The translations under genes were made by a program, and so were the position numbers. 64,000 bases of DNA, taken from NCBI RefSeq assembly GCF_056746865.1, contig NZ_CM163382.1. One strand, written 5' to 3'. Below the pieces are notes generated by a model that did not search any database, had not been told where the DNA came from, and saw only the letters and a program-made list of their open reading frames with translations. Numbering within the stretch: position 1 is the stretch's first letter; each line of letters opens with the position of its first letter. Shown here in pieces: positions 1,744-11,415 of the stretch.

Positions 1744-1966
1744 ATGAGTGAATATATGAAGAATGAAATACTGGAATTTCTGAACAGGCATGATGGAGGG
1801 AAAACGGCAGAAATTGCGGAGGCGCTGGCGGTAACGGATTACCAGGCCCGCTATTACCTGTTATTACTGGAAAAAGCAGGTATGGTTCAGCGCTCACCAT
1901 TAAGACGGGGCATGGCAACATACTGGCTTCTGAAAGGAGAGAAGCAGGCGGGGCAGAGTTGTTCAC
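1744..1966 (+). pseudogene. papI: papI-like regulator gene, C-terminus replaced at junction with ISCR2 fragment
   Basis: [16 protein letters not shown]...RRGMATYW matches PapI; homology ends after ...AGQSCS (about 1966), then the frame runs into IS91-family sequence. Confidence 0.7.
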
Positions 1967-2612
1967 TTTGCAAACTCTGCCGACCAGTGGTGATCCGTTC
2001 GGTGACGGGATTGGCAAGGTAGCCGGGTCCAGCCTGCACGCCGGCGTGGCGGCCAGGGCCGATGAACGCAAGAAGCTCGAACGGCTGTGCCGGTACATCA
2101 GCCGCCCGGCGGTATCCGAGAAGCGGCTGTCGTTAACACGAGGCGGCAACGTGCGCTACCAGCTCAAGACGCCGTACCGGGACGGCACCACGCACGTCAT
2201 TTTCGAACCATTGGATTTCATTGCAAGGCTGGCCGCCCTGGTACCGAAGCCCAGAGTCAACCTAACCCGCTTCCACGGGGTGTTCGCACCCAACAGTCGG
2301 CACCGGGCGTTGGTCACGCCGGCAAAACGGGGCAGGGGCAACAAGGTCAGGGTGGCTGATGAACCGGCAACACCAGCACAACGGCGAGCGTCGATGACAT
2401 GGGCGCAACGGCTCAAGCGTGTTTTCAATATCGACATCGAGACCTGCAGCGGCTGCGGCGGCGCCATGAAAGTCATCGCCTGCATTGAAGACCCTATAGT
2501 GATCAAGCAGATCCTTGATCACCTGAAGCACAAAGCCGAAACCAGCGGGACCAGGGCGTTACCCGAAAGCCGGGCGCCACCGGCTGAGCTGCTCCTGGGT
2601 CTGTTTGACTGA
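1966..2612 (+). mobile_element. ISCR2-like (IS91 family) transposase gene, 3-prime fragment
   Basis: C-terminal translation ...NIDIETCSGCGGAMKVIACIEDPIVIKQILDHLK... is IS91/ISCR-family; lies upstream of the virD2-like/floR unit. Confidence 0.65.
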
Positions 2613-2642
2613 CGAGCCTGAAGGCCAACGATACCAATCAAA

Positions 2643-3527
2643 ATGCTGCGTTCACAGCGCCGCGGCAGGGATCCGCCGTGCTGGTTGTCGGAAAAGGAGC
2701 CGCTAGTGGGAAAGAGGAGGGTAAATTTTCAGCGTTGCTGGCTCCCCGTCAGCCGGATTGGGTTGCATCGCAGGGGTGTCGAAAGAGTCAACTGCGGTCC
2801 AAAGCTGTTGGACTTGGGTGAAAAGGGCGTTTATTCTTCCTATACGTGCCGCGTTCCAGGCGGCGACTATGAGGGCTATGTCGATGCCCATGTGCGCCGG
2901 CTGGAGGCGCTACGCCGGGCCGGTATCGTCGAGCGGATCGACGCCGACCAATGGCGCATCCCCAATGATCTGGTCAGCCGTGCCGCCGCCCATGACGCCG
3001 GCCGAGACAGTCAGGCCAGCGTTCGCGTCCTTTCCCCGGTCGATCTGAACAAACAGATCGGATCGGACGGCGCGACCTGGCTGGACCGGCGGCTGATCCA
3101 CGGCGAGACGGCCGACCTTGCGCCAACCGGCTTCGGGCAACAAGTCCGCGAAGCCATGGACCAGCGCCGCGAGCACCATATCGAACAGGGCGACGCCACC
3201 CGCAGCCGGGACAGCCGCGTCTTCTACCGGCGCAACCTTCTCGCCATCCTGCGGGAGCGCGAGGTAGCCGGCGTCGGATCGGATATGGCTTTGAGTAAGG
3301 GCCTGCCGTTCCGCGCCGCCACGGACGGCGAGAGCGTCAGCGGCAAGTTTACCGGAACCGTGCATCTATCGAGCGGCAAGTTCGCCGTGGTCGAGAAATC
3401 CCATGAGTTCACCCTTGTCCCGTGGCGGCCGATCATCGACCGCCAACTCGGCCGCGAGGTTATGGGCATCGTGCAGGGCGGGTCGGTGTCGTGGCAGTTA
3501 GGGCGGCAGAGGGGGCTGGAACGCTGA
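2643..3527 (+). CDS. truncated relaxase-like ORF (virD2-like) that usually accompanies floR
   Basis: 294-aa ORF directly upstream of floR in the ISCR2-floR module; recognised by context and recalled similarity, function uncertain. Confidence 0.5.
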   Translation: MLRSQRRGRDPPCWLSEKEPLVGKRRVNFQRCWLPVSRIGLHRRGVERVNCGPKLLDLGEKGVYSSYTCRVPGGDYEGYVDAHVRRLEALRRAGIVERIDADQWRIPNDLVSRAAAHDAGRDSQASVRVLSPVDLNKQIGSDGATWLDRRLIHGETADLAPTGFGQQVREAMDQRREHHIEQGDATRSRDSRVFYRRNLLAILREREVAGVGSDMALSKGLPFRAATDGESVSGKFTGTVHLSSGKFAVVEKSHEFTLVPWRPIIDRQLGREVMGIVQGGSVSWQLGRQRGLER

Positions 3528-3743
3528 GTGCGCCCATGCCGCATTGCGAAGCAAAAGATAATCGGATAAAATGTAGCAATTCATATTCGTAAGCGTGGAG
3601 TAATCAGATGGGAAATTCCAAGTCAGCAGACAAGTAAGCCGCAACAACCAGTATTGTTGTTGCGGCGCTCTGTAAGGCTAGTCTCATCTGATTGCTGACG
3701 AGCAGACGTCGCCCGGTATTCCTTAATCGAGGGTTGATTCGTC

Positions 3744-8929: not shown

Positions 8930-9732
8930 CAACCCCAAGTCAGAGGGTCCAATCGCAGATAGAAGGCAAGGCGTTCGCGGTCGGGGGCTTCGATCCCCAA
9001 TACATTGAATAGGACAGCGAAGGCGCGCTCTGCTTCATCTGGCGCTGCCCAGTTCTCTTCGGCGTTAGCAATCATGAGTGCCAAATCGGCATAGCGATCT
9101 GCTGTTCCGAGCCGCCCAAGGTCGATCAGACCCGTGCATTGAAGAGTTTTAGGGTCCACCATGAAGTTCGGCATGCAGGGATCACCATGGCAAACAACCA
9201 TATCGGTGCGCTCTTGGTCGAGCCGCACCGGTAGCTCTCGTTCGACACGAGCCAAAAGATCGAGCTGCGGCGTACTCTTGTCCTCGTCCGGTAAGAAGTC
9301 GGGATTGACGGCATTGCGGGACACCACATCAACGGCGCGTCCGAACATTCGCGACAGCCTGCGCTCAAACGGACATTGATCAACCGATAGGCTGTGAACA
9401 GCGCCAAGTTGCTGCCCCATTGACGGCCACGCTTTGAGCAAATCCGCTCCAGACAGATCAGCCGCCGGTACTCCCGGAATTGCCGTTATCACCAAGCATG
9501 CACCCTCCTGTTCCTCCTGCCAGTTGATGACCTCGGGGCAAGCCACACCTCGACCTTTGAGCCAAATGAGGCGGTCACGCTCTCCAGCGAGCTCACCGCG
9601 GCGGGAAGCAGGTGCGATTTTCGCGAAGGCATGCCCGTCACCACGTCGAAAAACAAAATCACCAGATTCTCCGCCTCTGACAGGCAACCAGTCAGAATGC
9701 GATTCACCAAAAAAAATATTAGTTCGATTCAA
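8929..9732 (-). CDS. strA: aminoglycoside 3''-phosphotransferase APH(3'')-Ib (StrA)
   Basis: MNRTNIFFGESHSDWLPVRGGESGDFVFRRGDGHAFAKIAPASRRGELAGERDRLIWL... 267 aa. Confidence 0.93.
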   Translation of the reverse strand: MNRTNIFFGESHSDWLPVRGGESGDFVFRRGDGHAFAKIAPASRRGELAGERDRLIWLKGRGVACPEVINWQEEQEGACLVITAIPGVPAADLSGADLLKAWPSMGQQLGAVHSLSVDQCPFERRLSRMFGRAVDVVSRNAVNPDFLPDEDKSTPQLDLLARVERELPVRLDQERTDMVVCHGDPCMPNFMVDPKTLQCTGLIDLGRLGTADRYADLALMIANAEENWAAPDEAERAFAVLFNVLGIEAPDRERLAFYLRLDPLTWG

Positions 9733-9792
9733 TGGAGGTTCCTTCAGTTTTCTGATGAAGCGCGAATATAGAGAAATATCCCGAATGTGCAG

Positions 9793-10608
9793 TTAACGAA
9801 TTCTTGCGGTTTCTTTCAGCGCCGCCAATACCGCCAGCCCGTCGCGCAAGGGGCGCGGCTCGTGTGTGCGGATGAAGTCAGCTCCACCTGCGGCGGCGGC
9901 AAGCTCTGCAGCGAGTGTCGCGGCCCCGACATCCCCCGGACCACGGCCTGTGAGCGCGCGCAGAAAGGATTTGCGCGAAACAGACAGAAGCACCGGCAAA
10001 TCGAAGCGCAGCCGCAATTCATCGAACCGCGCCAGCACCGAGAGCGAGGTTTCGGGAGCAGCCCCCAGAAAAAACCCCATGCCGGGATCAAGGACAAGGC
10101 GGTTGCGTTTGATACCGGCTCCCGTCAGCGCCGCGATGCGCGCGTCAAAGAACGCCGCAATGTGATCCATGATGTCGCCAGCGGGTGCCTCGCGCCGATC
10201 TGCCTGCCCGTCTTGCACCGAATGCATAACGACGAGTTTGGCAGATGATTTCGCCAATTGCGGATAGAACGCAGCGTCTGGAAAACCGCGAATATCATTG
10301 AGATAGGCCACACCACGCGACAAGGCATAGGCTTGCGTCGCGGGTTGATAACTGTCGAGCGAGACGGGAATGCCATCTGCCTTGAGCGCGTCCAGCACCG
10401 GCGCGATACGCGCGATTTCTGTGTCGGACGAAACAGGCGCGGCGTCGGGATTGCTGGATGCCGGACCGAGGTCGATCACATCTGCCCCCTCGGCCATCAG
10501 CTTACGCGCCTGCGCAATGGCTGCGTCTGGCGCCAGATACCGGCCTCCATCGGAGAAACTGTCCGAGGTTATGTTGACGATGCCGAAAATGATGAGCGAT
10601 TTATTCAT
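9793..10608 (-). CDS. sul2: sulfonamide-resistant dihydropteroate synthase Sul2
   Basis: MNKSLIIFGIVNITSDSFSDGGRYLAPDAAIAQARKLMAEGADVIDLGPASSNPDA... 271 aa. Confidence 0.93.
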   Translation of the reverse strand: MNKSLIIFGIVNITSDSFSDGGRYLAPDAAIAQARKLMAEGADVIDLGPASSNPDAAPVSSDTEIARIAPVLDALKADGIPVSLDSYQPATQAYALSRGVAYLNDIRGFPDAAFYPQLAKSSAKLVVMHSVQDGQADRREAPAGDIMDHIAAFFDARIAALTGAGIKRNRLVLDPGMGFFLGAAPETSLSVLARFDELRLRFDLPVLLSVSRKSFLRALTGRGPGDVGAATLAAELAAAAGGADFIRTHEPRPLRDGLAVLAALKETARIR

Positions 10609-10848
10609 GGGGGCTTCTATAATAATAATAATCGAGCATGAGTCTCATACGGATGCTCGGGTCGAAAGGGAATCCCCAGGCGAGTAACCTGTTTGCGGTG
10701 ATCCATTAGCTGCAGGAGCAGAATAGCATACATCTGGAAGCAAAGCCAGGAAAGCGGCCTATGGAGCTGTGCGGCAGCGCTCAGTAGGCAATTTTTCAAA
10801 ATATTGTTAAGCCTTTTCTGAGCATGGTATTTTTCATGGTATTACCAA

Positions 10849-11415
10849 TTAGCAGGAAAATAAGCCATTGAATATAAAAGATAAAAATGTCTTGTTTACA
10901 ATAGAGTGGGTTTCCGGTGCTCCTTTGACACTCTCTCCATATCCCTCAGGTCCGGCACCAACAGATACCACGTTATTTTCTCCCGACACCTGTGAGCCAT
11001 GGCCCAGAGCTACAGAGCCTGAAGAATTTTCTATTCCAGCCCATCCCCCAATAGCAACACTCTGCTGTGAATTAAGTACCTCAGCGCTCTTACCTATGGC
11101 AACACCATATTTTGACTCAGCCTGACCGGCATCCCTTCCCAGGGTGACACTGTGTGGAGAATTATACACTCCCGAAAAAGAGCCAAACTGAAGACTTCCT
11201 GGTGAATCCATGTTAAAAGCGCCACCTCCCAAAAGGAAAGTGTTATTAGCTGTACCAGTTGAATTCGTAATAAAAGAGTTTTCTCCAATCAGTAAGCTGG
11301 AAGAATTAGCATCAACAGGCCCTGTCAAAACAGCCTGAGCCTGAGCCGAGAGCAGCAGGGCCACACTCACTGCCAGCGCGCTTTTCTTTAAAAAAGCATC
11401 ACGTCTTTTAAGCAT
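10849..11415 (-). pseudogene. trimeric autotransporter adhesin gene, N-terminal remnant truncated at resistance-module junction
   Basis: Signal peptide and head region shared with the full-length copy at 44242..46008 (identical ...[37 protein letters not shown]); homology stops near 10898; no anchor domain. Confidence 0.7.

Follow-up and report, generated by a model that had tools for sequence, protein, structure and literature searches.

Composition of the floR–tet(A)–strBA–sul2 module

The DNA analysed here (hereafter the window) is a stretch of 64,000 nucleotides from contig NZ_CM163382.1 of assembly GCF_056746865.1, read on one strand, and carries at positions 1965-10910 an 8,946-bp resistance module containing floR, tet(A), strB, strA and sul2. 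GC content steps to 0.55-0.66 in the module near position 1,950 and down again near 10,900, while the flanks lie at about 0.33-0.45. The source of every fragment was identified and both outer joints were placed to the base. The module is composed of two partial copies of the insertion sequence ISCR2, a virD2'-floR-lysR' segment, an RK2/RP1-type tet(A)-tetR(A) segment, the inverted-repeat-strB-strA end of a Tn5393-type transposon and the sul2 end of the integrative element GIsul2. As a whole, it is a plasmid-derived mosaic that became fixed in a chromosomal pathogenicity island of Escherichia coli. The features of the locus are listed below, with evidence in brackets.

1744..1964, + strand: papI, cut after codon 74 (Pfam FaeA, E=1e-30; alignment with native 77-aa PapI)
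1960..1964, no strand: left-joint microhomology TGTTC (native papI, complete ISCR2 and the window aligned together)
1965..2847, + strand: ISCR2 3' fragment, namely codons 283-497 of the transposase gene rcr2 (to 2612) and 235 bp to the oriIS-side end
2848..3527, + strand: C-terminal fragment of a virD2-like / DUF3363 relaxase (ORF 2643-3527 starts within ISCR2 DNA)
3744..4958, + strand: floR (NCBIfam FloR, 896 bits, full length)
4986..5284, + strand: lysR fragment, helix-turn-helix (HTH) domain only (ORF 4986-5291; NCBIfam LysR-family, N-terminal positions ~2-96 of roughly 300)
5285..5591, + strand: ISCR2 5' fragment (BLAST against complete ISCR2; sequence comparison)
5558..6757, - strand: tet(A) (NCBIfam Tet(A), 891 bits)
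6863..7513, + strand: tetR(A) (NCBIfam TetR, 304 bits; annotated in Sanji)
7514..7986, no strand: RK2/RP1-type DNA from between tetR(A) and the oriV iteron cluster
7987..8067, no strand: 81-bp Tn3-family terminal inverted repeat of the strA-strB transposon
8093..8929, - strand: strB, aph(6)-Id (NCBIfam APH(6)-I)
8929..9732, - strand: strA, aph(3'')-Ib (NCBIfam APH(3'')-Ib)
9793..10608, - strand: sul2 (NCBIfam; within the GIsul2 right-end segment 9752..10910)
10904..10910: attR core GAGTGGG, the right terminus of GIsul2 (end of the GIsul2 segment 9752..10910, - strand)
10911..11415, - strand: YadA-like adhesin gene, 5' 168 codons only (identity to intact genes; weak Pfam YadA_head match)
44242..46062, - strand: second, intact yadA-like gene, 606-aa open reading frame (ORF)
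45476..45491, + strand: unoccupied copy of the target site TTTATAATCCGGCGGG (pattern scan, alignment, ORF list)

A preliminary description of this DNA had read the gene order as an ISCR2 3' fragment, a virD2-like ORF, floR, a LysR fragment, an ISCR2 5' fragment, tet(A), tetR(A), a Tn3-family inverted repeat, strB, strA and sul2. That order proved exact when the module ORFs were identified with NCBIfam and Pfam and compared with plasmid annotations and the RefSeq annotation of E. coli strain Sanji, which agrees. The transposase part of the ISCR2 3' fragment (ORF 1959-2612) matches positions 293-508 of 509 of the NCBIfam ISCR clade Ia model, and the fragment was delimited by BLAST against the complete ISCR2 of a plasmid (locus L001). 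The DUF3363 ORF matches positions 155-374 of 375 of Pfam DUF3363 from its residue 72, and positions 435-651 of 654 of NCBIfam RlxS.

The arrangement had also been called a known plasmid one, and a megablast search of window positions 1-13000 against 72,556 plasmids bore this out. At least 5,000 records matched and, among the matches listed, plasmid copies are 99.9% identical to the window over 1945-10914, the best ones in one piece. Two of the matching plasmids have, by annotation, the same gene order together with a complete ISCR2 (ISVsa3) and flanking IS26. The same genes are found in the ARI-B island of IncC (A/C2) plasmids and in copies on IncF, IncY, IncHI and other plasmids, and the resistance-gene content is that described for the commonest ARI-B island of IncC plasmids (PMC7652850). 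Because of its gene content and sequence identity, the locus belongs to the ARI-B-type module family. In contrast to the plasmid modules, the window copy lies in a chromosome and has no IS26 on either side, and its outer ISCR2 has lost the first 964 bp; furthermore, typical plasmids continue from the sul2 end into the left end of GIsul2 with a truncated int, whereas the window has a YadA-like gene there. The intact genes predict resistance to florfenicol/chloramphenicol, tetracycline, streptomycin and sulfonamide. The module itself has already been described, and its base-level joints and the secondary att site considered below are modest additions.

A related cluster is found in integrative and conjugative elements (ICEs) of the SXT/R391 family, which likewise carry an ISCR2-associated floR-strBA-sul2 mosaic in a chromosomal mobile element. 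The SXT cluster differs from the window module in that it is not known to include the tet(A) segment, lies in rumB of the ICE and has complete ISCR2 copies.

The internal joints could be mapped by comparison with complete ISCR2 and with GIsul2 of plasmid pAB3, which gave probable positions for the ISCR2 ends that the preliminary description had proposed to map: 2847 on the oriIS side and 5285 at terIS. At 2847, 235 bp past the rcr2 stop codon, homology between the floR context and the ISCR2 of pAB3 stops. ISCR2 DNA therefore supplies the opening 68 codons of the DUF3363 ORF, in agreement with the Pfam match that begins at residue 72. The lysR'/ISCR2 joint at 5284/5285 coincides with the published terIS (GGAGTGACGGGCACTGGC), the right half of attLR, and lies 118 bp upstream of the rcr2 start (5403); both terIS and attLR are described in PMC9376610. 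The lysR fragment ends at the same base in every E. coli copy. ISCR2' is joined to tet(A) at 5586-5591 in the microhomology CTCCAA, and the last nine residues of Tet(A) are ISCR2-encoded (RNSSNSRCT versus SGAGQRADR in the pecM-linked copy, locus L018), its length of 399 aa being unchanged.

Two stretches that had been left as unassigned junction DNA, 7514-7986 and 10609-10897, could be assigned. The tet fragment is 100% identical to the pecM-tet(A) context of L018 over 5586-7987. When window positions 7400-7987 were fused to an RK2 oriV sequence and used as a query, a top match was 100% identical and 348 plasmid records covered at least 80% of it. The iteron cluster in the fused query differs by one mismatch from the RK2 TrfA-binding fragment printed in PMC3273809, and one iteron-like 17-mer lies in the window at 7864-7880. 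Given the oriV matches, the tet segment is therefore of the RK2/RP1 type and was broken at 7986/7987. The 81-bp repeat recurs in the chromosomal variant PKF11 (locus L005), where it stands next to strB and also, in inverted orientation, covers the 3' end of the gene for a 961-aa Tn3-family transposase; we take the transposon to which this repeat and strA-strB belong to be Tn5393. Lastly, 10609-10910 is the conserved end of GIsul2 upstream of sul2.

The two outer joints and tests for mobile units

On the left, the native pap region is 99.3% identical to window positions 525-1964, and homology ends at 1964. The native 77-aa PapI sequence used for comparison was guessed and then found by exact look-up in thousands of assemblies. 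At the joint, codon 74 of papI is connected to codon 283 of 497 of rcr2, leaving papI without its last 3 codons and stop and ISCR2 without its first 964 bp. With a slash for the joint, native papI reads ...GAGTTGTTC/TTCCACAAC (longer, ...CAGGCGGGGCAGAGTTGTTC/TTCCACAACTTAA), complete ISCR2 reads ...AGGTGTTC/ACTTTGC (longer, ...CAGGCGGGGCGAAAGGTGTTC/ACTTTGCAAAC) and the window reads ...CAGGCGGGGCAGAGTTGTTC/ACTTTGCAAAC, that is, papI up to TGTTC and ISCR2 afterwards. From this three-sequence alignment the left joint is therefore 1964/1965, and the boundary of 1966 given earlier has to be moved. An extra 10-bp patch common to papI and ISCR2, CAGGCGGGGC, lies just upstream of the joint at 1946-1955. 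The left joint is of the deletion (illegitimate-recombination) type, has 5 bp of microhomology (TGTTC) and is not the end of an element.

On the right, the module terminates at 10910 in ...TTTACAATAGAGTGGG (longer, ...CTTGTTTACAATAGAGTGGG). The joint at 10910/10911 lies 13 bp to the right of the boundary proposed previously (10897). The GIsul2 reference is carried by pAB3, a plasmid from Acinetobacter baumannii ATCC 17978, and contains int, alpA, repAC, trbJKL, ars, resG, ISCR2 and sul2; its GIsul2 ends at the same base, with the same GGG, as the module. Window positions 9752-10910 are 99.3-99.7% identical to this right end, an ISAba1 insertion in pAB3 apart, and end in GAGTGGG. The attR of GIsul2 has been described as having the core GAGTGGGA, with a conserved region of ~304 bp upstream of sul2 (PMC9376610), and the sul2 end, the conserved upstream region and the attR core are the same in the window. 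Plasmid contexts, independently, diverge at 10910-10914. The position of the right joint is exactly the right terminus of GIsul2 and not a random break.

The far side of this joint is a YadA-like gene that is 99.8-100% identical over 506 bp to intact genes (480 aa) and of which about 938 of 1,443 bp are missing. The module was thus correctly said to abut unrelated virulence-type genes, papI and an adhesin remnant. In the intact yadA-like gene the target reads TTTATAATCCGGCGGG/TTTCC (longer, ...ACATTTATAATCCGGCGGG/TTTCCGGTGC); the site can also be given as TTTATAATCCGGCGGGTTTCC, or in a 40-bp version as ...ACATTTATAATCCGGCGGGTTTCCGGTGC. Identity in the crossover region is limited to GGG (or GGGT). 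The 16 bp to the left of the crossover match the att arm TTTACAAT(C/A)GAGTGGG at 12 of 16 positions, and at 8 of 9 in the arm proper. A scan for TTTACAATM-N4-GGG with one mismatch allowed returned 3 sites in the window against 0.59 expected, an expectation that counts both strands and thus 128 kb of sequence. The first of the three is attR and the second is the intact paralogue's unoccupied site (45476-45491); the third lies in the gene of a serine-protease autotransporter (SPATE). Tandem repeats of 99 bp are found inside the second yadA-like ORF (about 44810-45384), whose 5' flank is ~95% identical to 11270-12401, and the window therefore holds two diverged copies of the yadA-like locus.

Four annotated proteins of the locus are fusion artefacts of these joints. 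The 92-aa PapI ORF (1744-2022) consists of 74 native residues and 18 from ISCR2 DNA, and in the 188-aa "hypothetical protein" ORF (10849-11415) the last 20 codons are sul2-upstream DNA; the start of the DUF3363 ORF and the tail of Tet(A) are the other two.

The defining features of the known types of mobile unit were then compared with the locus. Neither a flanking direct or inverted repeat pair nor a target duplication is present at the module ends (left flank ...GTTGTTC, right flank TTTCCGG), so the clean duplication of a single transposon that would speak against a deletion was looked for and not found there. Even with one mismatch allowed, no copy of the IS26 inverted repeat GGCACTGTTGCAAA occurs anywhere in the window. 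The rcr2 remnants amount to 215 and 64 of 497 codons, with no complete ISCR2 transposase gene, and neither the oriIS-side end (2847) nor terIS (5285) marks a boundary of the module, both lying within it. The sole Tn3-family inverted repeat, of 81 bp, is internal as well. A tblastn search with the GIsul2 integrase gave no match in the window or in the Sanji locus.

A CR2-sul2 unit, which the GIsul2 integrase can mobilise, is bounded by a full attLR about 119 bp upstream of rcr2 and by attR about 304 bp upstream of sul2 (PMC9376610). Window positions 5285-10910 have the layout of such a unit, with resistance genes in between, and retain the arm and core of attR at 10895-10910. The outer ISCR2, however, lacks its 5' end and attLR, and the inner one has at 5285 only the right half of attLR, with lysR DNA in place of the left arm. 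As this arm is missing and rcr2 is truncated there, the element in the window is a fragment and not a functional unit. Compared with GIsul2, the window lacks int, alpA, rep, tra and ars, and its insertion is flanked by the yadA-like gene rather than guaA, whose attB was located in K-12 for comparison. Since a defining feature of each is lacking, the locus is not a functional CR2-sul2 unit, GIsul2, ISCR2 unit, Tn3-type transposon or IS26 unit. With both ISCR2 transposase genes truncated and the integrase absent, the module is no longer self-mobile.

Distribution in E. coli and island background

Many E. coli chromosomes match the left flank (1-1964) at 99.9% identity, among them that of the sequence type 167 (ST167) strain Sanji, with which window positions 1-12401 are collinear and 99.7% identical, both junctions being the same. 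The Sanji paper describes an 8.9-kb sul2-strAB-tetRA-floR cluster within a 69.2-kb chromosomal insertion (PMC6392093); the text searched makes no mention of ISCR2, ISVsa3 or papI, and the junctions are apparently not described there at the base level. Among 5,426 complete E. coli genomes, 200-bp probes spanning each joint detected the right one in 230 and the left one in 187. Wherever a genome was among the top matches of both junction searches, its two joints were separated by the 8,946 bp seen in the window. Carrier isolates came from humans, poultry, pigs, cattle, dogs, wildlife and river water. A five-gene block usually counted as plasmid-borne is thus fixed chromosomally at one site in roughly 3-4% of complete E. 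coli genomes, where it would not be removed by plasmid curing or loss and where it moves with island DNA.

To the right, positions 12269-41280 are 99.99% identical to the AR_0085 chromosome and overlap the Sanji-like part in a 133-bp IS66 tnpA fragment (12269-12401). Past 12401, Sanji has a truncated transketolase gene and IS1, whereas the window continues with the AR_0085-like island, the SPATE gene and the second yadA-like copy. The window thus appears to be a recombinant, in which an apparent crossover in the IS66 fragment put the module beside the SPATE-bearing island. The layout of the window as a whole was found in none of the complete genomes searched. Furthermore, identity to Sanji-type genomes is only ~98% across the right flank (10915-12400). 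Many carriers match the first 506 bp of this flank (10915-11420) at 100%, and the differences presumably lie past 11420; they may have arisen by gene conversion from the window's second yadA-like copy.

The proposed comparison with the uninterrupted backbone could be made in part: native papI and intact yadA-like contexts were found, but an uninterrupted papI-yadA backbone was not found, and in none of the backbones examined do papI and the yadA-like gene lie side by side. After native papI come 343 bp and then alpA, a 191-aa gene and a yagK-like gene. On the 3' side of the intact yadA-like genes lie IS421, a sigma-like HTH gene, IS256/ISL3 and then either aerobactin genes or a carbamate-kinase/fdrA block. 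Entry of the module by homologous recombination via the alpA-yagK backbone found no support, this backbone being only ~89% identical to the backbone right of the module. At that identity, the two flanks come from different island backgrounds. The earlier suggestion that insertion was accompanied by deletion of host DNA is supported by the truncated genes, the absence of repeats and the separate locations of the flanking genes, which mark the junctions as deletion-type; it is refined by the position of the right joint at the exact attR terminus of GIsul2.

Two variants of the locus were found. In PKF11 (L005, chromosome, positions 1-8700) the sul2/yadA joint is kept and the left part differs; the region to the left of strB contains aph(3')-I, a tnpA/tnpR pair like that of Tn5393 and an IS3, and the papA remnant is inverted. 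The plasmid pNDM5_LS003 (locus L003; IncI-gamma/K1, NDM-5) carries at least 14 kb of the island with a shortened module, papI/ISCR2'-virD2'-floR-lysR'. It lacks 5285-10910, almost exactly the attLR-to-attR interval, and its joint contains a 9-bp filler, TGATCTGCT (L003 positions 9148-9156), which rules out a clean attLR x attR excision product. The filler is absent from the other loci retrieved and from the window, and the filler joint is absent from the 5,426 complete genomes. Nor does the filler represent additional lysR DNA, the lysR end being constant in all E. coli contexts. Evidently, the module moves together with the island DNA on its flanks.

Proposed origin and alternative explanations

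We consider the most likely history as a whole to be that of a plasmid-derived module with an integrase-made right end and a microhomology-made left end, followed by spread of the island. We conclude that the right joint was formed at an att site; its likeliest agent would be a GIsul2-family tyrosine integrase that acted in trans and joined attR, on a plasmid or an excised CR2-sul2-type circle, to the look-alike secondary site in the YadA-like gene. In published experiments, recombination of attL, attLR and attR with attB was carried out by the GIsul2 integrase rather than by the ISCR2 transposase, attR-mediated cointegration was the dominant reaction and secondary sites reduced to TGGG or GGGA were used (PMC9376610). 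The left end would be due to a microhomology deletion that ran, at the same time or later, from papI into rcr2 and would also have removed the reciprocal integration junction. The fixed segment may then have spread in E. coli by homologous recombination with flanking island DNA and, in this window, appears to have been spliced beside a second, related island copy through a homology switch in the 133-bp IS66 fragment. This history is further supported by PKF11, in which the right joint is kept beside a different left part, and by the lack of a flanking direct repeat and of any IS26 end.

Several observations weigh against this history. No GIsul2-type integrase gene is present in the window or the Sanji locus, so the enzyme must be assumed to have acted in trans, and typical donor plasmids keep only a short N-terminal remnant of int (tblastn residues 1-35). 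The predicted reciprocal junction, consisting of the yadA 3' part and attLR-ISCR2, had no matches with at least 80% coverage in the 5,426 complete genomes. Moreover, E. coli has a perfect attB at guaA, the expected preferred site, the crossover region shares no more than three or four bases with attR, and the order of events and the size of the deletion are not fixed by the backbones examined, which lack the ancestral papI/yadA-like arrangement. We put forward only tentatively that the attR/yadA joint is a natural fossil of off-target recombination by a GIsul2-family integrase through the attR-cointegrate or CR2-sul2 pathway. That pathway has so far been shown only in a laboratory two-plasmid assay (PMC9376610). 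If the proposal is correct, a trapped module was fixed and then spread, with homologous island DNA, to about 4% of complete E. coli genomes. The exact joints provide a natural case in which use of a secondary site by the GIsul2 integrase can be tested, and they leave the current understanding of these elements unchanged.

The main alternative is that both ends are random illegitimate joints, through which a linear or circular plasmid fragment was captured at short microhomologies with no integrase involved, its donor end falling by chance at the GIsul2 terminus. Elsewhere in the mosaic, joints do show microhomology (TGTTC at 1960-1964, CTCCAA at 5586-5591), only 3-4 bp are common at the right joint, and the lack of a nearby integrase gene and of a reciprocal junction in the complete genomes would be expected. 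We nevertheless rate this explanation as unlikely, and below the integrase-based one, because the break coincides to the very base with the end of GIsul2 in pAB3, where plasmids also diverge independently, and because the target, correctly spaced, agrees with the att arm in 8 of 9 positions when about 0.6 such sites are expected in 128 kb. A single transposition, by a Tn3-family or composite transposon, by ISCR2 rolling-circle transfer or by IS26, is far less probable still and already contradicted. ISCR2 fragments and a Tn3-family inverted repeat are present, and the left joint follows GTTC, the target tetranucleotide of the IS91 family. Against it stand the lack of a target duplication and of matching terminal repeats, the truncation of both rcr2 copies, the internal positions of the oriIS-side end, terIS and the Tn3-family repeat, and the absence of the IS26 repeat from the window. 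In addition, the left joint lies inside rcr2 in the sense direction, opposite to rolling-circle transfer, which proceeds from oriIS.

For this particular genome, we lean slightly towards an account in which no insertion took place here and a pre-formed segment of papI, module and truncated yadA (to 12401) was imported or relocated by homologous recombination. This concerns the latest event only and is compatible with the integrase and microhomology history given above for the first formation of the joints. It agrees with the near-identity of 1-12401 to Sanji and of 12269-41280 to AR_0085 with their overlap in the IS66 tnpA fragment, with the second, intact yadA-like copy in the window, with an overall arrangement seen in no complete genome and with the same segment on plasmid pNDM5_LS003. 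On the other side, the right flank at 10915-12400 diverges by 2% from Sanji-type genomes, perhaps through gene conversion from the second copy.

Some further observations concern the neighbouring DNA. Just beyond the right flank, 12840-16715 (- strand) encodes the SPATE, a protein of 1,291 aa with a Pfam Peptidase_S6 domain, an ESPR signal and a PIC/HAP1 beta-solenoid. In the pap remnant on the left, the papI-papB intergenic region (1409-1550) has retained an imperfect inverted repeat with two GATC sites, presumably the layout of the Dam/Lrp pap phase switch, despite a truncated papA and the loss of the remaining operon. Exactly where native papA homology stops (525), positions 475-524 form a perfect palindrome of 23+4+23 bp (CTGATGAATCCCCTAATGATTTT / AAAATCATTAGGGGATTCATCAG), which to our eye resembles two back-to-back IS10 outside ends. 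The same 56 bp of the palindrome region are present in many plasmids.

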